Positions 3,406 through 42,078 of a stretch of 64,000 nt of DNA are shown one piece after another. This stretch comes from an uncultured Gemmatimonadota bacterium (lineage in GTDB: Bacteria > JAAXHH01), in NCBI GenBank assembly GCA_951812955.1, contig OX638340.1, positions 2,848,001 to 2,912,000 on the forward strand, written 5' to 3'. Each line of letters opens with the position of its first letter. The stretch's first letter is position 1. Position numbers and translations under genes: made by a program. The notes beneath the pieces are model-generated. The model was not told the DNA's origin. It saw nothing but the letters and a program-made list of their open reading frames with translations, and made no database searches.

Positions 3406-6108
3406 ATGGCGAAACATGTGTACTACTTTGGTGGCGGCGAGGCGGACGGAACCGCGGACTTGCGTGAGCTTCTGGGCGGCAAGGGCGCCAATCTGGCCGA
3501 AATGAGCCACCTGGGGATTCCCGTACCCGCGGGCTTTACCATCTCCACGGAAATCTGCACCTATTTCTACGATAACGATCGCCAGTATCCGGCGGACCTT
3601 GACGAGCAGATCCAGCAGGCTATGGGACAGGTCGAGGCCGTCATGGACGCCGGTTTCGGCAGTCCCGAAAACCCGCTGCTGGTGTCCGTCCGGTCCGGAT
3701 CCCGTTCATCCATGCCCGGCATGATGGACACCATTCTGAATCTCGGCCTGAACGATGTAACCGTGCAGGGACTGATCGCGCAGTCGGGCGACGAACGTTT
3801 CGCCTACGACAGCTACCGGCGTTTCGTACAGATGTACGGCGACGTGGTCATGGGCGTGCGTCCGACGGACGATGAAGATCGCGATCCCTTCGAGGCGTTG
3901 CTGGAACGCAGAAAGGTCCGTGTTGGCGTCACGCAGGACGTGGAGCTCGGGGCCGCCGACCTCAAGGCGCTGGTCGCCGAATTCAAGGACGAGATCAAGG
4001 CGCGCACGGGCGCCGACTTCCCCGACGACCCCCGCGAGCAACTCTGGGGCGCCATAGGCGCCGTGTTCGGCTCGTGGCACAACGAACGCGCCGCGGTGTA
4101 CCGTAAGCTGAACAACATCCCGGATGAATGGGGCACTGCTGTCAACGTACAGGCCATGGTCTACGGCAACATGGGCAACGACTGCGCTACGGGTGTCGCT
4201 TTCAGCCGCGATCCCGCGACCGGCGAGAAGCGGTTCTACGGAGAATATCTCATCAACGCCCAAGGCGAGGACGTCGTGGCGGGTATTCGGACGCCCAGGC
4301 CAATCGAGCAGTTGCGTGAGGAAATGCCGGACGCCTACGATCAACTGGTCCGGATCTGCGATACGCTGGAGACCCATTACAAGGACATGCAGGATATCGA
4401 ATTCACCATCCAGCGCCACAACCTGTGGATGCTGCAGTGCCGGGTCGGGAAGCGTACCGGTTTCTCCGCCATCACGATCGCGGTGGACATGGTGAAGGAA
4501 GGCCTGATCGACGAGAAGGAAGCCCTGCGGCGCGTGGAGCCCGACCAGTTGGACCAGTTGCTGCGTCCCGTATTCGACGTGGAGGAAAAGCGCCGTGCGG
4601 AGAACGAGGGGCGGGTCCTCGCCCGGGGCCTCAACGCAGGTCCGGGCGCGGCGGCGGGCAAGGTGGCTTTCAATGCGAACGACGCCGAGACCTGGGCGGA
4701 CCGCGGTGACCAGGTCATCCTGGTCCGTATCGAGACGTCGCCCGAAGACATACGCGGCATGGACGCGGCGACGGGCATCCTGACCGCCCGGGGCGGCATG
4801 ACGAGCCACGCGGCGCTGGTCGCCCGGCAGATGGGCAAGGTCTGCGTCGCCGGCTGCGGCGAGCTGGACATCGACTACGCCACCCGGACAATGCGCGTCG
4901 GAGACCAGGTGATCAACGAAGGGGATTTCATCTCCATCGACGGATCCACCGGGGAGGTCATTGCCGGGGCCATCCCGACCATTCCCTCCGAAGTGCTGCA
5001 GGTCCTGTTGCAGAAATCCATGTCGTCCGAAGAATCGGAGGTCTATCAGCGTTACGAAAGCTTGATGGCCTGGGCGGACCGGTACCGCCGGCTGAGGGTG
5101 CGGACCAACGCGGATCAGCCCGATCAGTCGGCTACCGCGCGCGTCTTCGGCGCCGAGGGCATCGGCCTGTGCCGGACGGAGCACATGTTCTTCGAGGAAG
5201 ACCGGATCGACTCGGTTCGGGAAATGATCCTGGCCGATGACGAGGCCGGTCGCCGGAAAGCGCTGGCCAGGCTGCTGCCGATTCAGAGAAGCGATTTCAC
5301 CGGGATCTTCGAGGTCATGGACGGCTATCCCGTCACGATACGAACGCTCGATCCACCCCTGCACGAGTTTCTGCCCCACGATGCAGAGGCTATTGCGCAG
5401 CTCGCCGCGCAAACGGGGGTGCCCGTGGAGCGTTACCACCGCAAGCTGGAAGACCTGCGGGAAGCCAATCCCATGCTCGGCCATCGCGGCTGCAGGCTGG
5501 GCATCGCCTTTCCCGAGATCACCGAAATGCAGGCCCGTGCGATTTTCGAAGCCGCGACCGACTGCCTGAAACGCGGCATCAAGGCCATCCCCGAGATCAT
5601 GATCCCGCTGGTCGGACACCTCAATGAACTGCGCCTGCAGGCCGATGTCGTCCGCGCCGCGGCCCGGGCTGTGCAGGAAGAGACCGGCGTCGAGGTGGAC
5701 TACCAGATCGGCACGATGATCGAACTGCCGCGCGCCGCGCTGACTGCCCACGAAATTGCGGAAGAAGCGGAGTTCTTCTCTTTCGGGACCAACGATCTGA
5801 CCCAGACGACCTTCGGGCTATCCCGCGACGACGCGAAGTTCATACCCGACTACCTGCATGCCGGAATCTGGCCGGAAGATCCCTTTGTCAGTATCGACAG
5901 CAGCGGCGTCGGCGAACTGGTGAAAATCGGCGTCGAGCGGGGCCGGGCCACGCGAGGTGGCATGAAGGTGGGTATCTGCGGCGAACACGGCGGCGATCCC
6001 GCCTCGGTCGAATTCTGCCACGGCGTGGACCTGGACTATGTGAGTTGCTCCCCGTACCGCGTCCCCATCGCCTGCCTGGCGGCCGCACGGGCGGCGCTCG
6101 CGGAATAG
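3406..6108 (+). CDS. ppdK: pyruvate, phosphate dikinase
   Basis: 900 aa with [11 protein letters not shown]...[10 protein letters not shown], a phosphohistidine domain ([15 protein letters not shown]) and a C-terminal PEP-utilising TIM barrel ([14 protein letters not shown]). AAGGAG lies 8 nt upstream of the ATG. Confidence 0.95.
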
Positions 6109-6322
6109 GGCGCCTGGTTCGCAGGTCCGCACCTTTGTTCCGCTTAGCAGCGGTGCCTGGCGTCTGCCCCCGGTATGCGCTGTCCGAATAGGGTACCTGG
6201 ACCGGTTATCATCGCCCGCCTGGCCGCGACCCGGGCGGCGCCGTTCCGGCCAGGGGCCAACGTAAGCAACTTCTTTCTCTTTGCGCGGAAGTAACGGCGG
6301 CTTGCCGCGGAATTCCGGTAAC

Positions 6323-7468
6323 ATGTGGGAACTCTTCTGGCGATTCCTGGCCCTGGGATGCATAAGCTTCGGCGGTCCCGCCGCCCATCTGGGGTATTTC
6401 CGAACCGCATTCGTGGAGCGGTTGAAGTGGATTGACGAAGCGGCCTACGGCCGTCTCATCGCCCTGAGCCAGTTCCTTCCCGGCCCATCTTCCAGCCAGG
6501 TCGGTTTCGCCATCGGATACCAGCGGGCGGGCGTCGCGGGCGGCGTCGCCGTGTTCCTGGGTTTCACGCTGCCGTCGTTCGTGCTTCTTTACCTCCTCGC
6601 GATGGCTGGGGGTACGCTGACGGACACGGTCTACTTCGGCGGATTCGTCAAGGGGTTGAAACTGCTGGCCGTGGTCGTGGTCGCAGACGCCGTCCTGGGC
6701 ATGTATTCCACCTTCTGCAAGGGCCGGCTGACCGGTGCGCTCTGCGTATTGACCGCCTCGGCCCTGTTGGTCGCCCCTTCGATGGCTACCCAGTTCGCGG
6801 TCCTGGCGGCCGGTGCGCTGGTCGGCTGGCGCTTGCTCCGCGCTCCGGAGACGCCGGCCGGTGGCAGACTCCGGTTCTCCTGGCTGCCGCTGACGCTCTT
6901 TTTTCTGCTCCTCATCGGTCTGCCGTTCCTGGCGGGCCTGTCGTCGAAACTCGATCTGCTTTCACGTTTTTACCAGACCGGAAGCCTGGTATTCGGCGGC
7001 GGACACGTCGTTTTGCCCTTGCTTCAGCAGACCGTAGGCGAAGCGCTTTCCATCGATCGCTTCCTGCTCGGCTACGCCGCCGCCCAGGCCATTCCCGGTC
7101 CCATGTTCACCCTGTCCGCCTTTCTGGGCGCGGAGATGACCCCGGACCAGGCGCTGGCTGGCGCGTTGATCGCGGTCCTGGGGATCTTCCTGCCGGGATT
7201 CCTGTTGATCATGGCCTTTCACGATACCTGGGAGACCCTGGCGCGGAAACCGGGCGCGGCCGGCGCCGTCGCGGGGGTCAACGCCGCGGTGGTCGGGCTG
7301 CTGCTGGCGGCACTATACCAGCCCGTGTTCGTCAACGCCGTCTTCTCGCCCCTGGATCTCTCGCTCGCAGTTGTCGGGTTTTTCATGCTGCGGGTGATTC
7401 GATTGCCGATACTTCTGCTGGTGACGTTTTTCGCCGCTGCGGGTATTCTGGTTGCGGTTCTGGGTTGA
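6323..7468 (+). CDS. chrA: chromate transporter ChrA (CHR family, two-domain)
   Basis: MWELFWRFLALGCISFGGPAAHLGYF and a second half with FGGGHVVLPLLQQ, the typical duplicated ChrA domains. Strongly hydrophobic. Start taken at the internal Met of ORF 6281..7468. Confidence 0.8.
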   Translation: MWELFWRFLALGCISFGGPAAHLGYFRTAFVERLKWIDEAAYGRLIALSQFLPGPSSSQVGFAIGYQRAGVAGGVAVFLGFTLPSFVLLYLLAMAGGTLTDTVYFGGFVKGLKLLAVVVVADAVLGMYSTFCKGRLTGALCVLTASALLVAPSMATQFAVLAAGALVGWRLLRAPETPAGGRLRFSWLPLTLFFLLLIGLPFLAGLSSKLDLLSRFYQTGSLVFGGGHVVLPLLQQTVGEALSIDRFLLGYAAAQAIPGPMFTLSAFLGAEMTPDQALAGALIAVLGIFLPGFLLIMAFHDTWETLARKPGAAGAVAGVNAAVVGLLLAALYQPVFVNAVFSPLDLSLAVVGFFMLRVIRLPILLLVTFFAAAGILVAVLG

Positions 7469-7476
7469 ACAGTTAC

Positions 7477-8322
7477 TCACGACCAGTCCCCGCAACCGAG
7501 AAACGTCATGTGCTTCCCGGCCTCGTACGCGGGAAACTTCCGATAGGTGTTGATTCCTTCGACGGGACTGCCGCGGAACAGGAAAAGACAGGGCCACTCC
7601 CGCGTGACCTTCGTCGTCGCGGGCATGTACTGGATCGAGCCGCCCCGCCTCCACGCGTTGCTCTCGTTCGGATTGGAACCATGCAACAGCAGCGGGTGAT
7701 GGACCGAGACGTCTCCGGGCGACAGGACCAGGTCGACCGCCTGGCTTTCGTCGAACGCTTCCGGATCGGCCTGGTTGAGGATGTAGTTGTCTGTGCTCTC
7801 CGGGGAGTGGCTGTGCAGACCGGATCTGTGCGATCCGGGGATCACGCGGACACAACCATTGGAGGGCAACGAGGCGGTGATGGCGAACCAGACGGTAATG
7901 ACCTCCAAGGGCTCGAGGGGCCAGTAGTGGCCGTCCTGGTGCCAGTGGACGCCCCTGCCCCTTCGGGGCGGCTTGCAGATGTAATCCGCCGCGAAAAAGG
8001 CCACGTTCGGACCGACCAGGGCTTCCGCCACGTCCAGCAGGTTGCGGTCGCTGAGGAAACGCACCCAGAAGGGATCGCCGGCTATGAGCCAGTGTCCCAA
8101 CGATTCGGGAGGCAGATCGGGGTGGCGGTCCATCAACCAGTCGATATGCCGGTCCGCCTCTCGAATCAGTCCGGCGGGCAGGACATTACGCACGATGACG
8201 AAGCCGTCCCGTTCGTAGTCTTCTCCGATGTCCTGAATTTGTGGATAAGTAAACTCAGCCACGCAGTCTGACCTCGAGTACGGACGGTCGATCCCTGTCC
8301 GGAAGACCGTCCGCTGATCCAA
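7477..8322 (-). CDS. phytanoyl-CoA dioxygenase (PhyH) family Fe(II)/2OG oxygenase
   Basis: HWHQDGHYW (H-x-D) and VIPGSHRSG (second His) motifs. The start may be the GTG at about 8262 (VAEFTYPQ) rather than the ATG at 8322. Confidence 0.8.
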   Translation of the reverse strand: MDQRTVFRTGIDRPYSRSDCVAEFTYPQIQDIGEDYERDGFVIVRNVLPAGLIREADRHIDWLMDRHPDLPPESLGHWLIAGDPFWVRFLSDRNLLDVAEALVGPNVAFFAADYICKPPRRGRGVHWHQDGHYWPLEPLEVITVWFAITASLPSNGCVRVIPGSHRSGLHSHSPESTDNYILNQADPEAFDESQAVDLVLSPGDVSVHHPLLLHGSNPNESNAWRRGGSIQYMPATTKVTREWPCLFLFRGSPVEGINTYRKFPAYEAGKHMTFLGCGDWS

Positions 8323-11588: not shown

Positions 11589-12827
11589 TCAATCCTCGGG
11601 CCGTTCACCGGCGGGCGCCATCTTCACCAGCCTGGGTTCGAAGCGGGCCACCACTTCCACCAGGTCGGTCTGCGCCGCCATCACCTCTTCGATATTCTTG
11701 TACACAAAAGGGACTTCGTCGAGACCGGCGGACATGAGCGTGACGCCTCTCTCCCGGAGGATCCGGTTGGCGTCCTGCCAGTTCAGGCTCCTGATCGCCC
11801 GTTTCCGGCTCATCACGCGGCCGGCGCCGTGGGCGGCCGAATTCATGGCGTCCCGGCTCCCCTTCCCACGGACCACGAAGGCGGGACTCGCCATCGAACC
11901 GGGTATGATGCCCAGCACGCCCCGGCCGGCCGGCGTAGCGCCCTTCCGGTGTACCACTGCTTTCCGGTCCGGACGCTGGCCGGGGACGGTGATTCTTTCC
12001 TTCCACGCGAAGTTATGGTGGTTTTCCAGGTCAAGCAACACTTCCGCGCCGAGATAACCGGCCATGTGGCGGTGTATGCAGGCGTGGTTGGCCGCCGCGT
12101 AGTGTCCCATGAGCTCCATGGCCGCCCAGTACTCCTGGCCCGGTTCGGTGTCCAGGTCCAGCCAGGCGAGATGGCGCTGCTCTTTGGACAGCCCGGGACG
12201 CAGGGACATGGCCAGCCTGCTGTAATGGGAGGCGACCATGGCGCCGGTCCCCCGGCTGCCGCTGTGAGAAAGCAGGGCGAGGTAGGCGCCGGTATCCAGC
12301 CCGTTCAACGGTTCGTTCAGGGTCAGTTCACCGAATTCGACGAAATGGTTGCCGCTCCCACTGGTGCCCAGTTGGCTCCAGGCCTTGTCCCTGGCCTTGC
12401 GCGTCACGGGAGATACGGACCAGTTCCGGTCAAGGACCGGGTGACTTCGGCGTTTCTTGAAACTGGATCCGACGCCGAAGCGTGTCTCCGCGGAGATGGC
12501 CTTTCTGAGCCGGTCCGTTCCCCGGTCCTGGCGCAGCGTGTCCAGGGGCATGTCCAGGACGGTCAGTTTCATCCGGCAGGCGATGTCGACGCCCACGGCG
12601 TAGGGAATGACCGCGTTGTCTGTGGCCAGCACGCCGCCGATGGGCAGGCCGTAACCCACGTGGGCGTCCGGCATCAGCGCGCCGGCCAGGGCCACGGGCA
12701 GGGAACAGGCCCGTTCCATCTGCTGGACCGACTGCGCGTCCAGGTCCCGCCCCCACTGCCGATAGGGTATTTTTTTTGGCACTTGCCGCGTTCCTGGATA
12801 AGGGTCCGCAGTCCATACCGCGCGCAT
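11589..12827 (-). CDS. rtcB: RtcB-family RNA ligase homolog (3'-phosphate/5'-OH ligase family)
   Basis: 412 aa with RtcB signatures PDAHVGYGLPIGGV, GSGNHF, AHGAGR and HNF. There is an 11-bp gap to the upstream TauD gene and a 4-bp gap to the downstream enolase-family gene. Confidence 0.8.
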   Translation of the reverse strand: MRAVWTADPYPGTRQVPKKIPYRQWGRDLDAQSVQQMERACSLPVALAGALMPDAHVGYGLPIGGVLATDNAVIPYAVGVDIACRMKLTVLDMPLDTLRQDRGTDRLRKAISAETRFGVGSSFKKRRSHPVLDRNWSVSPVTRKARDKAWSQLGTSGSGNHFVEFGELTLNEPLNGLDTGAYLALLSHSGSRGTGAMVASHYSRLAMSLRPGLSKEQRHLAWLDLDTEPGQEYWAAMELMGHYAAANHACIHRHMAGYLGAEVLLDLENHHNFAWKERITVPGQRPDRKAVVHRKGATPAGRGVLGIIPGSMASPAFVVRGKGSRDAMNSAAHGAGRVMSRKRAIRSLNWQDANRILRERGVTLMSAGLDEVPFVYKNIEEVMAAQTDLVEVVARFEPRLVKMAPAGERPED

Positions 12828-16836: not shown

Positions 16837-18051
16837 ATGGCTGCGCGTGAAAAACCCATTTCCGACGAAGAGCGGGCTTTCTGGGCGGATATACGCCGTC
16901 AGTTCTACCTCGAGGACGGCGTGACTTTCCTCCAGGGCGGTTCGGTAGGTCCGTCCGCGAAGCCCGTGATCGAGCAGGTGATCGATTGGTTGCGCCAGGT
17001 GGAGGCGAATCCGCTTTACAACCAGCGTGAGCAGGTCATGGGGTCTCGGGTCGAGGCGGCCCGCGAAAAAGCAGCGCATTTCACCGGTGCTTCGGCCAAA
17101 AACGTGGCCCTGGTGCTCAACACCACGATGGGCATGAATGTACCCGCCCGCGGACTGCCCCTGCAGCCCGGCGGCGAGGTGCTGATGAGTGACCAGGAAT
17201 ACCCCTCGGTCCAGCGCATGTGGGAGCACATGGCCAGGACGCAGCACGTCCTGGTCCGGAAGGTTCCGCTGCCCACGCCGCCCGATTCGCCGCGAGAGAT
17301 CGTAGACGCCTTCGCCGCCCATATCACACCGCGGACCCAGGTCATGGTCTTCTCACACGTCTATTGCACCACCGGTCTCGTGGCGCCGGTCCGCGAACTG
17401 ACTGCCCTGGCCCATGACCGCGGCGCGGTCGCCGTGGTGGACGGCGCGCACGCGGTCGGGATGGTCCCGGTCGACATCGAAGCCTGGGGATGCGATTTCT
17501 ACGCGAGCAGCACGCACAAGTGGCTGCTCGCGCCCAAGGGCACGGGAATCGTATACGTGGCCGATCCTTACCTGAGTTCGCTACCGGCGCCGATCCTGGG
17601 ATACAATACGGCGCCGTTCAGCCACGCGAGACGATTCGACGTGACGGGGACCCACGATACGACCCATTTCGCCGGACTGGGCGCGGCCATCGATTACCAG
17701 CAGGACATCGGATGGGAAGACCGGATCCGGCCCTACTGCCTGGGCCTGGCCCGGTACCTGCGCGAACTGGTCGAGGAGGAGATCGAGGGCGCCCGCATGA
17801 CCGTGCCGCCGGGCTCCGAGATGTCGGGGTTTCTGACCTCCTTCACCATAGACGGGTGCAGCCTCCACCGCATCGTGCAAATCATGTGGGAGGAATACCG
17901 CATCCAGATCGCCGCGACCCGTGCGGGCGATCTACCCGTCTTCCGGATTTCCACCCATTTCTACGACAGTTACGAGGATATCGACCGGTTCATCGATGCG
18001 TTGAAGACCGTGCTTGCCACCCGGCGCGACGAAGTCTTCGAAGACCGGTAA
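16837..18051 (+). CDS. class-V aminotransferase-fold PLP enzyme (isopenicillin-N epimerase / cysteine desulfurase-like)
   Basis: 404 aa with SSTHKWLLAPKGTG (PLP-lysine motif). AAGGAGG lies 8 nt upstream of the ATG. It is divergent from the sulfatase gene. Confidence 0.85.
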   Translation: MAAREKPISDEERAFWADIRRQFYLEDGVTFLQGGSVGPSAKPVIEQVIDWLRQVEANPLYNQREQVMGSRVEAAREKAAHFTGASAKNVALVLNTTMGMNVPARGLPLQPGGEVLMSDQEYPSVQRMWEHMARTQHVLVRKVPLPTPPDSPREIVDAFAAHITPRTQVMVFSHVYCTTGLVAPVRELTALAHDRGAVAVVDGAHAVGMVPVDIEAWGCDFYASSTHKWLLAPKGTGIVYVADPYLSSLPAPILGYNTAPFSHARRFDVTGTHDTTHFAGLGAAIDYQQDIGWEDRIRPYCLGLARYLRELVEEEIEGARMTVPPGSEMSGFLTSFTIDGCSLHRIVQIMWEEYRIQIAATRAGDLPVFRISTHFYDSYEDIDRFIDALKTVLATRRDEVFEDR

Positions 18052-18161
18052 TAGCTTGGCAATTCGGCACGCGAAGCGAAACGCTCCTTGAGAGCGGTCC
18101 GAAGCGAACAAGCTGTCCTGTCCCTGCCGACCCTGCCGTACGCGCGCAAGGTCCCGATCAC

Positions 18162-19547
18162 ATGTTCAGACTCGAATTCGACCGCGGGACCATCCTGGTG
18201 CATGGCGACAGAGCCACGGTGGCCGAGTTGAAGCTTCCGGGCTGCGCCTTTGACCGGCGGGTGTCGCTTTACCGAGCTCCGGCACGGCATTACCGCGAGA
18301 TCATAACGCGGCTGGCCGACCGGGGATTGACTTACCGGGACGACGCCCGGTCCTACGGCAAACTGGACCTGTCCTTTCAGTCGGACCGGTCTCCCTTCCC
18401 CTATCAACAGGAAGCGGTAGACGCCTGGTGGCAGGCGGGCGGCCGCGGCGTGGTCGTGCTGCCGACCGGGGCGGGAAAGACCTTCGTCGCACTGATGGCG
18501 ATGGCGCGGGTCCAGCGCGGCACGCTGGTAGTCGTGCCTACCATCGACCTGATGCAACAGTGGTACGGCGTGATCTCCAGCCAGTTCGATATCGAAGTGG
18601 GACTGATCGGCGGTGGCTACTACGACGTCGAGCCGGTCACCGTGTCCACCTACGATTCCGCGTACCTGCATATGGAACGGTTCGGCCACCGGTTCGGCCT
18701 GGTGATCTTCGACGAATGCCACCACCTGCCGGGACCCTCCTATCTGATGACGGCCGACCTGTCGCTGGCGCCTTACCGGCTCGGGCTGACGGCCACGCTC
18801 GAACGGGAGGACGGCGCGGAACACCAGTTGAAGGACGCGATCGGAGAGACCGTCTACCGCCAGGAGATCCGCGCGCTAAGCGGGGAATACCTGTCCGGCT
18901 ACGAAACGATAAAAGTCAGTGTGCGCCTTTCCCCGGAAGAACGCGAGGAATACCAGGAGGAAAGGAATACCTACCGCGCGTTCCTGGACAGCCACCGGAT
19001 CTCGTTGTCCGGGCCAAATGGATGGGTCCGTTTTCTGGCGGCGACGTCCCGCAGCGAAGAAGGCCGCCGGGCATTCACGGCCTACCGTACCCAGAAGGCC
19101 ATCGCCCAGGGTTCACAGGCAAAGCTGCGCGTGCTGGAAAGATTGATCCGGCAGCACCGCCGCGACCGCATGCTCATCTTCACCAGCGACAACGAAACGG
19201 TCTACCGCATATCGCGCCGGTTTCTCATTCCAGCCATCACGCACCAGACCAAGGTGAAGGAGCGCCAGGAATTGCTGGCGGCGTTTAACGCCGGTGAATA
19301 CCCCTTCCTGGTCACCTCCCGCGTACTGAACGAAGGGGTCGATGTCCCCGAGGCCAACGTGGCCGTGGTGCTGTCCGGTTCCGGTAGCGTAAGGGAACAT
19401 GTACAGCGTCTCGGCCGCATTCTCCGGCGTGTCGAGGGGAAGCACGCGATCCTGTACGAACTCGTGGCGGAGCAGACGGGCGAGGAATACGCGAGCTCGC
19501 GGCGAAGGCAGCACAGCGCCTACCGGAAAGCCCCGGAAGGGAGGTAA
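18162..19547 (+). CDS. XPB/Ssl2-like superfamily-2 DEAD/DEAH-box helicase
   Basis: Walker A VLPTGAGKT, motif II DECHH, a C-terminal helicase domain (LIFTSDNETVYRIS...TSRVLNEGVDVPEANVAVV...QRLGRILR) and an N-terminal damage-recognition-like domain. Start at MFRLEFD; the track ORF's upstream part is junk. Confidence 0.8.
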   Translation: MFRLEFDRGTILVHGDRATVAELKLPGCAFDRRVSLYRAPARHYREIITRLADRGLTYRDDARSYGKLDLSFQSDRSPFPYQQEAVDAWWQAGGRGVVVLPTGAGKTFVALMAMARVQRGTLVVVPTIDLMQQWYGVISSQFDIEVGLIGGGYYDVEPVTVSTYDSAYLHMERFGHRFGLVIFDECHHLPGPSYLMTADLSLAPYRLGLTATLEREDGAEHQLKDAIGETVYRQEIRALSGEYLSGYETIKVSVRLSPEEREEYQEERNTYRAFLDSHRISLSGPNGWVRFLAATSRSEEGRRAFTAYRTQKAIAQGSQAKLRVLERLIRQHRRDRMLIFTSDNETVYRISRRFLIPAITHQTKVKERQELLAAFNAGEYPFLVTSRVLNEGVDVPEANVAVVLSGSGSVREHVQRLGRILRRVEGKHAILYELVAEQTGEEYASSRRRQHSAYRKAPEGR

Positions 19548-19550
19548 GGC

Positions 19551-20801
19551 ATGCTGACGGGTGACCTCCTCCGCGTCCGTTTTCGTAAGGGCCGGATCCA
19601 TCTTCCCTATATCGATGATCAGGATCCCGATCACCTCGGGATCGCCGAAACGCTGATCCGGATTTTCGAAAACCACGAGGGCGGAACCCGCCAGGAACTG
19701 GATGAAGAGCTGGCGGATACGACCGGCAGCGGGACGGAATTCCTGTTTCATCGCGGACTGGCCAAGTTGCTGCGGGACCGCTGTACGTTCGAGTCGGCGT
19801 CACCCGTCGACCCTGCGGATCTTCGAAGGCGGATCTTCGCGGCCGCTGCCGCGGCATACAGCACGGATCAGGTCCGCATCGACCGGGAGGCCATTCTGGC
19901 CGCGGCGGGTGCGCCGGACGCCCTGGATGTCACGCAGGTGGAAGGAACTTTCTACGCCGATCTGAAGGAAGCCGAACGGCTCAAGTCATTCAAGCCCTGT
20001 ACGCCCGGATGGCTCTTGAGCAGGTACAACGTCGCCCTGGCCCAGGCCGCCCTGCTGCGGGCATCCGGAATGGATATGCTCGTGGAAGGAGAAAGTCCGG
20101 CCCGTTATCGTGAACTCTTCCGCAAGATGAAGTTCTTCCGCCTGCTCCACGAAATCCGGCAGACCGGTCCGGGGAAATACCACGTTCACGTTGACGGTCC
20201 CATGTCGCTCTTCAAGTCATCCCAACGCTACGGACTGCAGATCGCCCAGTTTCTCCCTTCCGTGCTGCACTGCCAAACCTGGCAAATCACGGCTTCTATT
20301 GTCTGGGGCGCCGCGCGCCGTGAAGGTGTATTGAAATTGACGCCTGAAACGGGGTTGAAACCGGTAGGCCCTTCTACGGGACAGTGGATACCCGAAGAGG
20401 TGGCCTGGCTCGAAGACCGGTTTAACCGGCTTAAAACGGATTGGCGCATTTCGGCCGGGACGGACGTCATCGACCTGGGCGGCCAGGGTGTACTGGCTCC
20501 CGAGTATATCCTCACCCATCTACCCACCGGGATGAGCGTATACCTGGAATTCCTCGGATACTGGCGCTCCGAAGGTGTGAGGACGCGCCTGGAACTGCTG
20601 GGCAGATACGGCCCTCCGAACATGATCCTGGCGATTTCCGCGGAACTGGGCGTGGATGAAGAAGCATCGACGGATATTCCCGGCGAGGTCTATGCGTACC
20701 GACGGACACCCGTCGCCCGCGACATCCTGAAAATCCTGGAAAACATGGTTAAAACCCATCCAGGCGCATCGGCGGGAACCCTGGATTTGTTCGACCCCTA
20801 G
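19551..20801 (+). CDS. DUF790-family protein (Bax1-like nuclease partner of XPB)
   Basis: 416 aa, translationally coupled (3-bp gap) to the XPB-like helicase, with AGGGAGG upstream. Size and position match the DUF790/Bax1 proteins encoded beside XPB in archaea and actinobacteria. The family assignment rests on recall of that family and its gene context, not on a verified motif. Confidence 0.6.
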   Translation: MLTGDLLRVRFRKGRIHLPYIDDQDPDHLGIAETLIRIFENHEGGTRQELDEELADTTGSGTEFLFHRGLAKLLRDRCTFESASPVDPADLRRRIFAAAAAAYSTDQVRIDREAILAAAGAPDALDVTQVEGTFYADLKEAERLKSFKPCTPGWLLSRYNVALAQAALLRASGMDMLVEGESPARYRELFRKMKFFRLLHEIRQTGPGKYHVHVDGPMSLFKSSQRYGLQIAQFLPSVLHCQTWQITASIVWGAARREGVLKLTPETGLKPVGPSTGQWIPEEVAWLEDRFNRLKTDWRISAGTDVIDLGGQGVLAPEYILTHLPTGMSVYLEFLGYWRSEGVRTRLELLGRYGPPNMILAISAELGVDEEASTDIPGEVYAYRRTPVARDILKILENMVKTHPGASAGTLDLFDP

Positions 20802-23618: not shown

Positions 23619-24479
23619 ATGCGCGCAGAACAGGTCGTCCTCGACTCATTGCGCCAGTGGGCGGAAGAGCATGACAACATCCGCGGCATGGTCCTGACGA
23701 GTTCCCGGGTCAACGAAGACGCGGTCCTGGACCTGATGTCGGACTACGACGTGGAGGTCTATGTGACCGACCAGCAGTGTTTCGCGGGGGGCGATGAATG
23801 GCTGGAGGCATTCGGCCCCGTGTTAATACGTTGGCCTGCGTGCCCTGCCTGGGACGAGGAGGGCGGGTTGTATCGCCTTGTGATCTATGAAGACGGCGTA
23901 CGGATCGACTGGGGAGTAAAAAAGGTTGAGCAAATGAAAAGGTTCAATGGTCCTTCCCAACCCTACAGAGTGCTGGTGGACAAGGACCGGCGCGTCGAAA
24001 ACCCGCTCCAGACGAGTTATGCCGGTTTCAACATCACCCGGCCTTCGAAGACAGAATTCGATTCGATGATGCATGACTTCTGGTGGGACCTCACCTACGT
24101 GGCGAAAAGTCTCTGGCGCGACGAAATTTACTGGGCGAAGTACATGTATGGCAGACGGCACTTCAAGGAGCTCGAAAAGGTCATCGAATGGTACATCGGC
24201 ATGCATCACGAATGGTCTGTCAACACCAACAAGCACGGCCGGTGGTTCAAGCGGTACCTGGACGAAGATACGCTGGAAGAAATCGATTCCACCTTTGCGG
24301 GCGCGGATATCAAGGAAAACTGGACCGCGCTGTTCAACATGACCCGGCTGTTCAGGCGGCTTTCCGTCGCGGTCGCAGATGAACTGGGTTTCGATTACCC
24401 CCATGATTCCGACCGGCGCGTTACGGCGTACATGGACAAGATCAGGCGCCTGGACCGGGACGCGGAGGATTTCGTATGA
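23619..24479 (+). CDS. aminoglycoside 6-nucleotidyltransferase ANT(6)/AadK-family protein
   Basis: 286 aa, collinear with ANT(6): LTSSRVNEDAVLDLMSDYDVEVYV and FWWDLTYVAKSLWRDEIYWAKYMYG match conserved ANT(6) blocks. Confidence 0.7.
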   Translation: MRAEQVVLDSLRQWAEEHDNIRGMVLTSSRVNEDAVLDLMSDYDVEVYVTDQQCFAGGDEWLEAFGPVLIRWPACPAWDEEGGLYRLVIYEDGVRIDWGVKKVEQMKRFNGPSQPYRVLVDKDRRVENPLQTSYAGFNITRPSKTEFDSMMHDFWWDLTYVAKSLWRDEIYWAKYMYGRRHFKELEKVIEWYIGMHHEWSVNTNKHGRWFKRYLDEDTLEEIDSTFAGADIKENWTALFNMTRLFRRLSVAVADELGFDYPHDSDRRVTAYMDKIRRLDRDAEDFV

Positions 24480-26223: not shown

Positions 26224-27093
26224 ATGTCATCCAACGGGGCGTTTATCATAGACAAGAACCTGGGCGCGCGCCTGGACGAGACCCAGGCGGATCTGCCGAA
26301 GGCCAATTCCGATGGCGAAGCGGTCGTCCCGCCGACGGATGAACAGAAATACCTGTTCGACAAGGACGGCTGGCTCCTGTTGCCCGGGGTGCTGTCCGAG
26401 GCCGAATGCGTGGAGATGCGGGCGTTCTGCCTGCAGTTGCACCATGATCCGGAGTCCATCCCCGAACCCGAGCGTTCTGTCCTCGGCGGACCATTACAGC
26501 GCCTGACGGACCACCCATTGGTGGTGGGTTTCATGAACGAATTTCTGGCCTACCCCGGCCTGTCCAGCCAGATTTGCTACGGTTTCCGTCAGGAATCTGC
26601 CAGTTTATTCTACCGGGAATCCGGTGACGGCGCCTTCGGCCCTCATAACGGCAACGGCATGCTGCGTTTCCCGGGCGACTCCCATCTCTACCGCTGTATT
26701 CCTGGCAAGGCCAACTCCGCGCTGACAAGGGTGGTCTGGGAACTGAACCCGGTCACGGAGGGGAACGGAACGCTGCTGGTATCCGGAAGCCACAAGGCCG
26801 TCTTCCCCGCGCCGCCGTCCATACAATCGCCGGACTCGCCGATCTGGAACACCTATACCTGTCCGCCAGGATCGTTGATATTCTTCACCGAGGCCCTCAC
26901 CCACAGCGGCAGGCCCTGGATCGACGAGGAGCATCCGCGGATCGCCGTCTTCAGTTGCTACAACTCTGTCAACAGCAAGTGGCACAACTGGGACCCGCAC
27001 CCCGAGCTTCTTGCTTCCATGCCGCCCCTCAGACAGACCCTCTACCGTCCGGTTCACGTGGCTGGCAACCTGGTGGGTGGCGAGGTACACTGA
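26224..27093 (+). CDS. PhyH-family Fe(II)/2OG oxygenase with an H-x-G variant of the first iron-binding motif
   Basis: FDKDGWLLLPGVL start, GPHNGNG where paralogs in this window have WHQD, and VSGSHKAVFP as the second His motif. Confidence 0.75.
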   Translation: MSSNGAFIIDKNLGARLDETQADLPKANSDGEAVVPPTDEQKYLFDKDGWLLLPGVLSEAECVEMRAFCLQLHHDPESIPEPERSVLGGPLQRLTDHPLVVGFMNEFLAYPGLSSQICYGFRQESASLFYRESGDGAFGPHNGNGMLRFPGDSHLYRCIPGKANSALTRVVWELNPVTEGNGTLLVSGSHKAVFPAPPSIQSPDSPIWNTYTCPPGSLIFFTEALTHSGRPWIDEEHPRIAVFSCYNSVNSKWHNWDPHPELLASMPPLRQTLYRPVHVAGNLVGGEVH

Positions 27094-37430: not shown

Positions 37431-37584
37431 AACCTGCTCCGGCTAAAAAACTTGCCTGTTGTACAGGCGCCTTTAAATTGGGTCGAGAGTATTCCAAAAT
37501 ACAGACAGATCTTCATAGCTGGCAAGGGTGATTTTCCCAAACCAGGAAGGCGTGTCCCGGCTCGGTGCTGAAGGGAGATTTATC

Positions 37585-38370
37585 ATGTCTGCGGCACAAT
37601 CGGAAGCCCATCGTGGACTGACCATCGAAGCGGTCGGAGCGTTCCAGGACCAGGGGTTCCTGGTAGCCGGAAAATTGCTAGAGGACGATCACGTGGAAGT
37701 ACTGCGTGCGGAGTACGACCGCTTATTCGAAACGGCGCGTGAGAGCGGCCGTTACCGCAACCTTTCCATCGACGATACGGAAGACAAGAACCGGAAGAAC
37801 AGAGCCCGGACGCAGATGCTTCAGATCATGCAGATGTGCGAACGCAGCATCGAGTTCAGAAGACTGTTGTATCATGAACCCATCCTGGACATCGTCGAAT
37901 CACTGCTGGGACCCAATATCCAACTTTTCCACGACCAGGCGCTATACAAGCCGCCTCGTCAGGGCGGTCCCGTCTTCTGGCACCAGGACAACGGTTACTG
38001 GCAGTGCTCGCCAGCCAATCTGGTCAGCTGCTGGCTCACGCTGGATGACGTGGACGTGTCGAACGGGGCCATGCACCTGATTCCCGGGTCGCACCGGCAC
38101 CTGGTCTCCCATGAACGATCGGCCGAAACCAGCGCCCTGCTCGACCTCGGCGACCAGGCGGCTACGCAAAAGGCGACCGTGGTCGACCTGCCCGCGGGCG
38201 GCGCCATGTTCCACCACTGCCAGACCATGCACCACACCCCGGAAAACGTCACCGACCGGCCGCGCAGGGCTTTCGCCATCCATTACATGACGCCCGGCAC
38301 CAAATCGATCAGGACCGGGGACTACCTGGACGTATCGTTCTCCCGTCCTATGTTGCGGATGAGGGTGTGA
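37585..38370 (+). CDS. PhyH-family Fe(II)/2OG oxygenase
   Basis: FWHQDNGYW (H-x-D) and LIPGSHRH. Start at MSAAQSEAH with GGGAGA upstream. Divergent from the E1 alpha gene. Confidence 0.8.
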   Translation: MSAAQSEAHRGLTIEAVGAFQDQGFLVAGKLLEDDHVEVLRAEYDRLFETARESGRYRNLSIDDTEDKNRKNRARTQMLQIMQMCERSIEFRRLLYHEPILDIVESLLGPNIQLFHDQALYKPPRQGGPVFWHQDNGYWQCSPANLVSCWLTLDDVDVSNGAMHLIPGSHRHLVSHERSAETSALLDLGDQAATQKATVVDLPAGGAMFHHCQTMHHTPENVTDRPRRAFAIHYMTPGTKSIRTGDYLDVSFSRPMLRMRV

Positions 38371-38395: not shown

Positions 38396-39238
38396 ATGAC
38401 GGAGAAACACCGGTGGGAACCCCTCGCCCCGGACCTGGAATCCATCCTGGCCGCCGAAAGCGATCCGCTCCTGGCCCTTTCGGAGGGCCGTATCCCCGCG
38501 ATCATATGCCGGCAGGCCTATGCGCCCGCTCACTGCCAGGCGTTGATCAAGCGGTTCATCGATCGCGGGCTGATGCGGGACCCCGACGATCCGGAGGCCG
38601 CGGCAACAGATAACCGCACGAGGATAGACATCGGGACCAGCCTGGCGAACCGGGGTTCGGACAAAGAGGCTTTTCTTAATCACGCAGTCGGCACGCGCCT
38701 TCTGTACGAGACCCTGTTCGATGGCTATGACGATCCGGTGAAGCTGCTGTACGGGGTGCTGGACACGCTCGCGGGCGAAAAGCGCGCTATGACCGCGCGG
38801 GAGCCGGACGGCCGCAAGTATGGTCCGGCCATCTTCCGAATCCACTACGGCGGACATACCTACAAACCCCACATCGACCACGTCACGCTCCGCGAGAAGC
38901 GGTTCGACTACGACGTGACCCGGTTCGGCCACCAGTTCGCCGGGGTCCTCTGCTTCCAGAATGCACTGCACGAGGGACGCAGCACCCAGGCCATCCTGCA
39001 CCGGTGCATGTGGACGCCCGAGGTGGAGGAATCCATCGAGACCGATACCTTCCCCGACTACGCCCGGCGCAACGGCGTCAGCAGCTACACGGTCGACCTC
39101 GAGCAGGGTGACCTCTACTTCTTCAACACCCGCCTCATCCACGAGGTGCCGGCCGTGGAGGGCGATCAGCCGCGCATCGTCCTCGCCACTTTCATCGGCT
39201 ATTCCCCCGACGACCCTGAAGTCTACGTCTGGTCGTGA
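38396..39238 (+). CDS. putative Fe(II)/2OG-dependent oxygenase of an unassigned family
   Basis: KPHIDH (H-x-D) and a later TRLIHEV His in a predicted cupin-like context. No confident family assignment from sequence alone. Confidence 0.4.
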   Translation: MTEKHRWEPLAPDLESILAAESDPLLALSEGRIPAIICRQAYAPAHCQALIKRFIDRGLMRDPDDPEAAATDNRTRIDIGTSLANRGSDKEAFLNHAVGTRLLYETLFDGYDDPVKLLYGVLDTLAGEKRAMTAREPDGRKYGPAIFRIHYGGHTYKPHIDHVTLREKRFDYDVTRFGHQFAGVLCFQNALHEGRSTQAILHRCMWTPEVEESIETDTFPDYARRNGVSSYTVDLEQGDLYFFNTRLIHEVPAVEGDQPRIVLATFIGYSPDDPEVYVWS

Positions 39239-39856: not shown

Positions 39857-40873
39857 TCAGACCCGGCGTTGCCGGTGCAGCAGGTACAGGAAAAATGGCG
39901 CACCGAGTAACGTAGTCAGTATCCCAATGGGCAATTCGGCCGGCGCCATGGCCGTCCGGGCGACCAGGTCGGCCAGGACCAGCAACAGCGCGCCTGCCAG
40001 CGCGGCCATGGGCGTCAGGATGCGGTAGTCGGGTCCCACGATCAGCCGGACCATGTGCGGCGCCAGGAGCCCGACGAAACCGATGATGCCACTCACCGAA
40101 ACCGCGGCCGCGGCGAGGCCGGCCGCCGCCGCCAGCAGAACCAGTTTGACCCGTTCGACGTGCACGCCCAGCTGGGACGCCTGTTCGTCCCCCAGGAGCA
40201 GTACGTTCAGTTCCCGCGCGTACACGAGGACGATGGTCAGCCCCACCGCCGCGTAGGGCAATAGCATCCATACGTGATCCCATCTCCGGGCGGACAGGCT
40301 GCCCATGAGCCAGAAGAGCATCTGGCGCTGGTTCTCGCCGCCCATCACGAGCATGTAGGACGTGAAGGAGGTCGCCATGGCGCCGATGGCGATGCCCGTG
40401 AGGAGCAGGGTGGTCGACGCGACGCGGCCACCACGACGCGAGAAAGCGTATACCGCCATGGTTACGGCGAGGGCGCACATGAAAGCCAGAACGGATACCG
40501 CGTTCAGCCCGAACATCCAGAATTCCAGTTCCAGGGCGACCGCGGTCGTGGCGCCGAGTGCGGCGCCGGCCGATATGCCCATGATGTAGGGATCGGCCAT
40601 GGGATTCTGGAAGAAGCCCTGCATCACCCCGCCCGAACTGGCCAGGGCGGCCCCGACCAGCACGGCGAGGAGCGTTCTCGGCAGCCGGATCTCCCATACG
40701 ATCGTATTGGTCGCGGAATGTGCCGTCTCGATCACCCCGCCCGGCCAAAGGTTATCCGCCAGTACCTGCAGCACGGTTCCGGCCGGGATATACACCGCGC
40801 CTACGCCCATGGAAAGCACACAGGCGGCGAAGAGGATCGCGGCGGTCAATGCCAGGACAATGGATCTGTTCAT
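39857..40873 (-). CDS. FecCD-family ABC permease (vitamin B12/iron-siderophore type, BtuC-like)
   Basis: 338 aa, 9-10 TM helices and the conserved FecCD block ([19 protein letters not shown]...[11 protein letters not shown]). Confidence 0.85.
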
Positions 40874-41699: not shown

Positions 41700-41980
41700 A
41701 AAAAAACCAGCCGCTCCATGTTGGAAGGGCTGGGTCGGGACGGCAGGCATGCGCATCCGGGCTCGGCCTCTCTGCTCACGGAGAAGCGTTCGCACAGCCT
41801 GCAGGCAGGTCTCCTGACTGACGGATCGTCCTACTCCTCAAGTCTTCCCGCCGGCCATTTGGCTTAGCCTAACCGGCAGTGACGAGTTTGAGTTTCGTCC
41901 CCGAACACAGTGGCGGGACCGTGATGGATTCGCACCATCTTCCCTTTTCAGCGTTCTAGCTAACCGCCACCTGCGGCTGT
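41700..41980 (-). promoter_or_regulatory. cobalamin (AdoCbl) riboswitch in the 5' leader of the btuCD-like/pduO operon
   Basis: The minus strand reads GGTGGCGGTTAGCTAGAACGCTGAAAAGGGAAGATGGTGCGAATCCATCACGGTCCCGCCACTGTGTTCGGGGACGAAAC. This carries the conserved GGGAAG...GGTG..AATCC...CGGTCCCGCCACTGT core with the B12 box GCCACTG. It sits immediately 5' of the first transporter gene. Confidence 0.8.
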
Positions 41981-42078
41981 ATTCGATTGTCCTTTCAATT
42001 TACAGGATAGCGGAAATACCGCAATGCAAATTCTCCTTCGGACCTCGAGTCGTACGATGTATGAGGATAGAACGATAG

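Follow-up and report, generated by a model that had tools for sequence, protein, structure and literature searches.

The window studied here, a 64-kb stretch of contig OX638340.1 from an uncultured Gemmatimonadota bacterium, carries two adjacent genes that encode an archaeal-type XPB helicase and a Bax1 (DUF790) protein. We read this pair as a bacterial XPB-Bax1 helicase-nuclease machine produced by coupled translation, which likely serves accessory DNA repair or the processing of stalled forks and branched DNA, and we give this reading a probability of about 75%. The accessory repair or branched-DNA role is the most economical assignment for the pair and is weakly grounded. A sequence-only reading of the same DNA had described an XPB-like helicase followed by a DUF790/Bax1-like protein; its coordinates, protein lengths, GAGKT and DECHH motifs and 3-bp spacer all match the sequence. 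Features of the helicase gene and its two ends are given below, where AfXPB and StXPB denote the A. fulgidus and Sulfurisphaera tokodaii (XPBII) proteins and AfBax1 and StBax1 their partners.

18146..18151, plus strand: GCAAGG, a Shine-Dalgarno-like ribosome-binding element 10 nt 5' of the XPB start
18162..19547, plus strand: gene of the archaeal-type XPB helicase/translocase, 461 amino acids (PDB phmmer and Pfam)
18171..18347, plus strand: damage-recognition domain (DRD), residues 4-62 (Pfam PF18458 XPB_DRD)
18462..18482, plus strand: Walker A or motif I, PTGAGKT, residues 101-107 (translation)
18708..18725, plus strand: motif II, FDECHH (DExH box), residues 183-188 (translation)
18789..18812, plus strand: motif III (TAT) and then the RED motif, R215-E216-D217 (alignment to AfXPB and StXPB)
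18963..19085, plus strand: thumb motif (ThM), about residues 268-308, in its long archaeal form (alignment)
19257..19274, plus strand: HD2 helix KERQEL with E367 and E370 (alignment to EEREEIL of AfXPB)
19404..19427, plus strand: helicase motif VI, QRLGRILR, residues 415-422, the same as in AfXPB (translation)
19539..19553, plus strand: coupling junction, made up of GGGAGG (19539-19544), the stop codon TAA (19545-19547), GGC and the start codon ATG (19551)

The helicase aligned end to end with AfXPB (2fwr/6p66_A) over residues 4-453 in a phmmer search of the PDB (E 1.5e-110) and matched S. tokodaii XPBII at E 4e-97, while eukaryotic XPB/Ssl2 chains reached only E 1e-23 to 1e-27, in two stretches. 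Pfam places XPB_DRD, ResIII, DEAD, Helicase_C and ERCC3_RAD25_C on the protein, and the match to XPB_DRD covers the entire profile (1-57 of 57) at E 1.5e-16, with 60.4 bits against a cutoff of 26. Around the RED motif, LTATLEREDG aligns with TATFEREDG of AfXPB and with R205/D206/D207 of StXPB. The thumb motif, some 40 residues, has zero gaps against both archaeal proteins, and StXPB R258, the wedge residue F278 and W298, whose roles have been described (PMC7672443), correspond to R268, W288 and Y308. The NCBIfam equivalog for the DNA repair helicase XPB (NF045503) stayed below its cutoff (239.5 bits against 610) and matched in two stretches of its 548-position profile. Given the AfXPB alignment, the DRD, the RED motif and the gapless thumb motif, the protein belongs by sequence to the short archaeal XPB type and not to the long type of NF045503. 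The same four features bear out the earlier XPB-like label, and the helicase groups with XPB, not with RapA/SNF2 or type III Res proteins as had been considered. By analogy with its relatives it is predicted to be a DNA-dependent ATPase and a 3'-5' duplex translocase. Readings of the helicase as PbeA, a dnd restriction enzyme (TIGR04095), RadD, Hef or UvrB were rejected, these being partial matches in a shared core and far below cutoffs.

The second gene and its features are as follows.

19551..20801, plus strand: gene of the Bax1/DUF790 nuclease, 416 amino acids (Pfam, PDB phmmer, AlphaFold2 and Foldseek)
19551..20000, plus strand: N-terminal domain with a beta-hairpin and two three-helix bundles, the putative XPB-binding module (secondary structure of the model)
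19824..19838, plus strand: R92-R93 and F96 (alignment to StBax1)
19953..19967, plus strand: Y135 and D137 (alignment to AfBax1)
20022..20030, plus strand: R158-Y159-N160 (alignment of 81 sequences)
20058..20339, plus strand: predicted central beta-sheet domain, about residues 170-263 (strand and helix pattern of the model and fold match)
20397..20756, plus strand: predicted C-terminal PD-(D/E)xK-type nuclease region with E283, E288/D289, E318 and E333 (topology of the model and alignment to AfBax1)

Pfam DUF790 (PF05626) matches residues 1-396 of this protein over its full length (profile 1-387 of 387) at E 1.1e-93, with 314.6 bits against a cutoff of 28.8. Among PDB sequences the protein found PfuBax1 (8gy8, E 2.9e-26), AfBax1 (3.3e-24) and StBax1 (1.3e-19). 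An AlphaFold2 model built with 28 homologues had a mean predicted local distance difference test score of 84.1 and a predicted template modelling (TM) score of 0.76. When the model was searched against the PDB with Foldseek, the top eight matches were all Bax1 chains (E 2.5e-26 to 2e-21, TM scores 0.59-0.70), and the first match to anything else came at E 7e-3. The identity proposed for 19551..20801 is thus secure: the sequence-only reading would have failed had this frame shown no similarity to DUF790 or Bax1, and it shows both in sequence and in predicted fold. The two archaeal Bax1 equivalogs of NCBIfam, NF053694 and NF053695, have a cutoff of 500 bits and give the protein 132.5 and 116.4 bits, and by these scores the protein is a member of the Bax1 family that falls outside both archaeal seed groups. 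The central domain probably corresponds to the Cas2-like CRD of archaeal Bax1, with boundaries taken from the description of AfBax1.

Both genes lie on the plus strand in the same reading frame, and neither is likely to be open by chance because both have strong full-length homology. We take 18162 as the true start of XPB because homology to the DRD begins there, the encoded MFRLEFDRGTI starting at position 1 of Pfam XPB_DRD, and because the conserved GCAAGG precedes it. In an alignment of 19 related loci this element is the sole conserved part of the 110-bp intergenic region 5' of XPB; no operator, SOS box or promoter is conserved there across the 19 syntenic loci, and a hairpin at 18082-18096 was found in the window only. 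The longest open reading frame (ORF), 17490..19547, was rejected as the helicase gene: it overlaps the gene of a class-V aminotransferase (16837..18051), its first 220 codons have no homology, and homology starts, along with the conserved ribosome-binding site, at 18162. At the other end, 3 bp separate the stop codon of XPB from the start of Bax1, and the Shine-Dalgarno sequence GGGAGG lies within the 3' end of the XPB gene.

The contacts that join archaeal XPB to Bax1 have been located on the N-terminal bundles of Bax1 (DuPrez et al., PMC7293015). The residues involved are Y131, D133, E135, Y155 and N156 in AfBax1 and R86, R87, L89 and F90 in StBax1; the latter group pairs with E357/E360 of StXPB, which contact Bax1 and for which there are mutational data, and mutation of R86/R87/F90 weakens XPB binding (PMC7293015). 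In the window Bax1, R92/R93/I95/F96 align with the StBax1 group and Y135/D137/Y159/N160 with Y131/D133/Y155/N156 of AfBax1, and K139 stands at the position of E135. On the helicase side, E367/E370 correspond to E357/E360 of StXPB, a mapping that runs through the AfXPB alignment and is extrapolated to StXPB by an n+10 offset. R92 and F96 are invariant in an alignment of 28 sequences. Among 81 bacterial Bax1 sequences D137, R158 and Y159 are invariant, N160 is kept in 80, and the column of Y135 holds Y or F in 80. Judged by these alignments, the residues that join the archaeal partners are conserved on both window proteins.

The nuclease site is less straightforward. The triad of AfBax1 is E275/D305/E318 (DuPrez et al., PMC7293015), and alanine at the canonical catalytic Asp abolishes nuclease activity of S. 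solfataricus XPB-Bax1 (PMC7293015). In the window protein, E318 (in A-P-E-Y, 20496-20507) takes the position of D305 and E333 (in L-E-F-L-G-Y-W, 20544-20564) that of AfBax1 E318. At position 318, 71 of the 81 bacterial sequences have D and 10 have E; at position 333, 66 have E and 15 have D. A non-acidic residue occurs at neither position, and P317, G336 and W338 are invariant. The two positions are (Glu,Glu) in the window and in loci L001-L007 and L010. Loci L008-L009, L011-L019 and L022 have (Asp,Asp), and most other bacteria have (Asp,Glu). Glu at 318 is confined to the window, these closest relatives and one myxobacterial sequence. These exchanges are conservative and agree with a maintained metal site. 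AfBax1 E275 aligns with D289, in a column that varies among bacteria, and E283 is present in 80 of the 81 sequences.

One alternative turns on these residues, namely that Bax1 is mainly a non-catalytic regulator or DNA-holding subunit, that XPB would be the working part, a duplex translocase for bubble opening, replication restart or removal of stalled complexes, and that in this clade the nuclease site would be weak or out of use. The window and its nearest relatives indeed have Glu in place of the canonical catalytic Asp. Bax1 also evolves faster than XPB within the clade (70-83% identity against 88-94%), and its G+C content at third codon positions is 0.70, lower than that of XPB (0.80), which is like its neighbours. 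A decaying site should look different, however: 318 and 333 are acidic in all 81 sequences, only as (E,E), (D,D) or (D,E), and the flanking P, G and W are invariant, so that the retention pattern is that of a maintained metal site. We regard a purely regulatory Bax1 as unlikely.

Relatives were collected by a pattern and tblastn scan with one genome per species, and the locus analyses concern the best 80 loci. At least 571 genomic stretches encode a relative. The best 80 of these loci are all bacterial, and the relatives belong to Gemmatimonadota/Latescibacterota, Planctomycetota, Acidobacteriota, Myxococcota, Zixibacteria and Deinococcota. Closest among the matches listed is 'Gemmatimonadetes bacterium APA_bin_41' at 96% identity, and several metagenome-assembled genomes of Gemmatimonadota and 'Latescibacterota' with the pair have sponge-style bin names. 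The presence of Bax1 beside XPB in actinobacteria, claimed earlier, found no evidence among the retrieved relatives, actinobacteria not having been searched directly. In a hidden Markov model search of 1.84 billion cluster representatives the Bax1 family had 3,091 members at E<=1e-3 and 1,234 at E<=1e-30.

Linkage was counted in the 76 loci with enough upstream sequence to be informative. In 57 of them, from at least six phyla, the XPB gene immediately precedes Bax1 on one strand and abuts or overlaps it, the tblastn gaps in these 57 ranging from -43 to +65. An insertion of 0.2-1.2 kb separates the two genes in eight loci, and the remaining 11 have a solitary Bax1 and lack any XPB gene within 8 kb. 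In Deinococcota, Planctomycetota, Acidobacteriota and Myxococcota the helicase of the pair shows this same combination of a DRD and a helicase core. Clustering of all ORFs in the 80 loci revealed no third gene that travels with the pair beyond the syntenic clade of the window itself.

Several planctomycete loci depart from the usual arrangement. In Gemmataceae and other Planctomycetota (L055, L061, L075, L077, L080 and L068) one or two short ORFs totalling 0.7-1.2 kb stand between XPB and Bax1. In L068 the XPB frame is apparently split at DECHH (5680-6294 and 6287-7111), a sign of either a frameshift or a pseudogene. In Isosphaeraceae, including Tautonia sociabilis, Bax1 occurs with no XPB within 8 kb (L059, 2998-5473; L060, 6216-9248), just 3' of an ORF carrying a radical-SAM motif like that of HemN/HemW (CxxxCxxC; 'IPFCAHKCGYCDF').

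The neighbours of the pair in the window are genes of a sulfatase, a class-V aminotransferase, an FG-GAP repeat protein, a nucleotidyltransferase, an aldehyde dehydrogenase and PhyH dioxygenases. The rest of the window is core metabolism, with pyruvate phosphate dikinase, RelA/SpoT, 2-oxoacid dehydrogenase E1/E2 and 2-oxoacid:ferredoxin oxidoreductase. Also present are a CCA-adding-type enzyme (PolyA_pol head domain) and, behind a cobalamin riboswitch, genes of cobalamin salvage. No mobile or defence gene, methyltransferase or sensor was found among the scanned genes of the 64-kb window, in agreement with the metabolic setting outside any defence island that had been described. The block of sulfatase, aminotransferase, XPB, Bax1, FG-GAP protein, nucleotidyltransferase (ANT) and aldehyde dehydrogenase is kept in most of L002-L019, and the aminotransferase is absent from it in three of these. 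Across the same loci XPB is 88-94% and Bax1 70-83% identical to the window proteins. The pair is a stable chromosomal gene pair in the lineage of the window, in about 18 genomes.

The pair is also found on plasmids. A tblastn search against plasmids located it on megaplasmids of Deinococcus (12) and on plasmids of haloarchaea (about 30), and RefSeq labels the plasmid pair as 'DUF790 family protein' and 'DEAD/DEAH box helicase family protein'. On plasmid P1 of Deinococcus gobiensis (L081, 6501-7565) the pair is immediately preceded, on its own strand, by a gene of the spore-photoproduct-lyase family, which gives it one repair-flavoured context. Contexts on the other Deinococcus plasmids vary and include transposases, topA and metabolic genes.

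The pair could be a stand-alone immune system in which helicase and nuclease recognise and cut invading phage or plasmid DNA, by a logic like that of type III Res subunits or other helicase-nuclease defence pairs. It is patchily distributed across bacteria, it sits on the Deinococcus (12 records) and haloarchaeal megaplasmids at times beside transposases, TnpB, or HNH or NERD nucleases, and the 2005 paper on COG3372 and superfamily 2 (SF2) helicases left a 'selfish character' possible. The helicase also scores against defence models, both the dnd-associated restriction model TIGR04095 and, in PADLOC-DB 2.0, PbeA (E 8e-60) and others. However, the PADLOC-DB matches cover the SF2 core only and the scores fall far below NCBIfam cutoffs, Bax1 has no match at all in PADLOC-DB 2.0, and no pbe or dnd genes are nearby. 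The window offers core metabolism in place of a methyltransferase, sensor or other defence gene, and, unlike fast-turnover defence islands, the block persists across some 18 related genomes whose XPB is 88-94% identical. No homologue was found in 50,697 INPHARED phage records by tblastn or in IMG/VR by a pattern scan. The DRD, RED motif and thumb motif are moreover features of a repair motor that recognises distortions or junctions. We consider a stand-alone immune system improbable. The earlier choice between a repair module and a nucleic-acid-targeting system thus leans to repair or DNA processing, and its defence half is disfavoured by the stable synteny, the lack of defence genes and the lack of a PADLOC match for Bax1.

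Another possibility, to which we give very little weight, is that the pair has spread horizontally across phyla and megaplasmids as a two-gene immune or anti-mobile-element nuclease that senses unusual structures in invader DNA and does not act in repair. If true, this would add a family to the known defence systems, and the unexplained absence of repair phenotypes when XPB/Bax1 are mutated in archaea would appear in a different light. That the helicase is a type III Res subunit or a SNF2/RapA-type remodeller beside an unrelated ORF is refuted: ResIII (PF04851) is its top-scoring Pfam domain and a Deinococcus homologue has a sub-threshold SNF2-related match, but PF04851 spans only residues 78-215, a generic DEAD-like lobe and the only likeness to type III Res, whereas the whole protein aligns with AfXPB at E 1.5e-110 complete with DRD, RED and thumb motifs, no nuclease domain is fused to it, no Mod methyltransferase occurs among the scanned window genes and the adjoining ORF is a genuine Bax1.

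Returning to the XPB-Bax1 helicase-nuclease machine, the biochemistry and structures of the archaeal complexes (PMC7293015, PMC7672443) suggest how it might work. One transcript with coupled translation would yield both proteins. The N-terminal helical bundles of Bax1 would bind XPB at its thumb motif and its second motor domain, forming a 1:1 heterodimer. XPB would grip duplex DNA between its two RecA-like domains and be driven along it by ATP, and its RED motif and aromatic thumb tip (W288) could force the duplex open where there is a distortion, bubble or fork. The other strand would be held by Bax1, whose C-terminal PD-(D/E)xK-type domain could cut near the junction of single-stranded and double-stranded DNA.

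Several points weigh against this interpretation. Because the window clade has E318 where an Asp is essential, the activity or metal preference of its Bax1 could differ. The first triad acid (D289) is not conserved among bacterial relatives, and because its column varies while E283 is near-invariant, the alignments appear to map the active-site geometry only in part. Window Bax1 also appears to lack the C-terminal dimerisation domain of AfBax1, because it stops about 14 residues past the last helix predicted for the nuclease domain. As for function, the spore-photoproduct-lyase neighbour was seen in one of six Deinococcus plasmids inspected and is absent from the other five. We found no experimental work on a bacterial XPB-Bax1 pair in the literature searched. 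Where UvrABC and XPB coexist, repair of ultraviolet damage is done by UvrABC.

The pairing itself is already known. A link between COG3372/DUF790 and genes of SF2 helicases (SSL2-type, COG1061) was reported in 2005, and co-occurrence of COG3372 with ResIII and helicase domains across prokaryotes in 2012. The archaeal complex has been characterised structurally and biochemically, and bacterial pairs are generically annotated in RefSeq. A 2012 paper on M. tuberculosis XPB called that XPB eukaryote-like and stated that no XPB-Bax1 complex had been identified in bacteria, and a 2026 review called Bax1 archaeal-specific. Two points stand out in the window: Glu at the canonical catalytic Asp in its clade, and the stable, core-like chromosomal context.

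Among known systems, the A. fulgidus pair (6p66; AfXPB 2fwr) shares with the window pair the length of XPB and its order of DRD, HD1, RED, ThM and HD2, an essentially gapless alignment over residues 4-453, adjacent genes, and a Bax1 built of N-terminal bundles, a central sheet domain and a PD-(D/E)xK nuclease domain. The window host, in contrast, is a mesophilic-looking bacterium and its Bax1 is only about 22% identical, is shorter (416 against 468 amino acids) and appears to be without the C-terminal dimerisation domain; Glu replaces D305 in it and K139 replaces E135, and the first triad acid is unconserved among its bacterial relatives. In the S. tokodaii XPBII-Bax1 structures with forked DNA (6p4f/6p4o/6p4w) RED and thumb residues contact the DNA, and the window XPB keeps them as R215/E216/D217, R268, the aromatic wedge W288 and Y308; the window pair likewise keeps the interface salt-bridge pair, as XPB E367/E370 and Bax1 R92/R93. 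The S. tokodaii complex differs in the lower similarity of its Bax1 (E 1.3e-19), in having RDD in place of RED, and in the state of StBax1, an obligate homodimer that relies on a C-terminal domain not apparent in window Bax1. The DUF790 and DEAD/DEAH pairs of the Deinococcus megaplasmids have the same gene order, abutting or overlapping genes and a DRD-plus-core helicase, but their Bax1 is about 30-34% identical and their contexts vary, whereas the window pair is chromosomal and lies in a stable block. M. tuberculosis XPB (Rv0861c type; NF045503) is likewise a bacterial ATPase of the SF2 XPB family that carries a RED motif; unlike window XPB it is longer, has a eukaryote-like N-terminal domain, is reported to lack the DRD and the long thumb motif, and has no identified Bax1 partner.

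Other genes in the window deserve brief mention. Within 32 kb there are four genes of PhyH-family Fe/2-oxoglutarate dioxygenases and a homologue of the carrier-independent halogenase WelO5:

7477-8322, minus strand: PhyH/WelO5-like gene
26224-27093, plus strand: PhyH/WelO5-like gene
30402-31313, minus strand: PhyH/WelO5-like gene
37528-38370, plus strand: PhyH/WelO5-like gene
38396-39238, plus strand: PhyH/WelO5-like gene

The dioxygenases and halogenase, together with the sulfatase and the FG-GAP repeat protein of 919 amino acids, may, we presume, fit a host-associated lifestyle such as that of a sponge symbiont. A 1041-residue ORF at 27194-30319 (minus strand) joins an APH-type phosphotransferase, an M23 peptidase and a class-III aminotransferase in an unusual three-part architecture. 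The nucleotidyltransferase of the conserved block (23619-24479, plus strand) is a streptomycin/ANT(6)-type adenylyltransferase with a full-length match to PF04439 (E 3.7e-75), and it varies far more between genomes (52-85% identity) than its neighbours. The cobalamin riboswitch (Rfam RF00174, 117 bits) at 41786-41989 on the minus strand lies 5' of a group of genes on that strand, among them a FecCD-type transporter permease (39857-40873), and next to it are cbiZ/cobD, divergently oriented genes of cobalamin salvage. A homologue of the RNA ligase RtcB (11589-12827, minus strand) lies some 5 kb before the pair and is surrounded by metabolic genes, and no link between it and the XPB and Bax1 genes was seen.

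An intact XPB-Bax1 module is thus widespread in bacteria, though reviews call Bax1 archaeal-specific. Because its bacterial hosts include cultivable and manipulable organisms (Deinococcus, planctomycetes and myxobacteria), these carriers could serve as genetic systems for XPB-Bax1 function, and they could show what the pair does in cells where a UvrABC pathway presumably coexists. The finding extends known biology, and its main value lies in pointing to bacterial hosts for the study of XPB-Bax1 in vivo.

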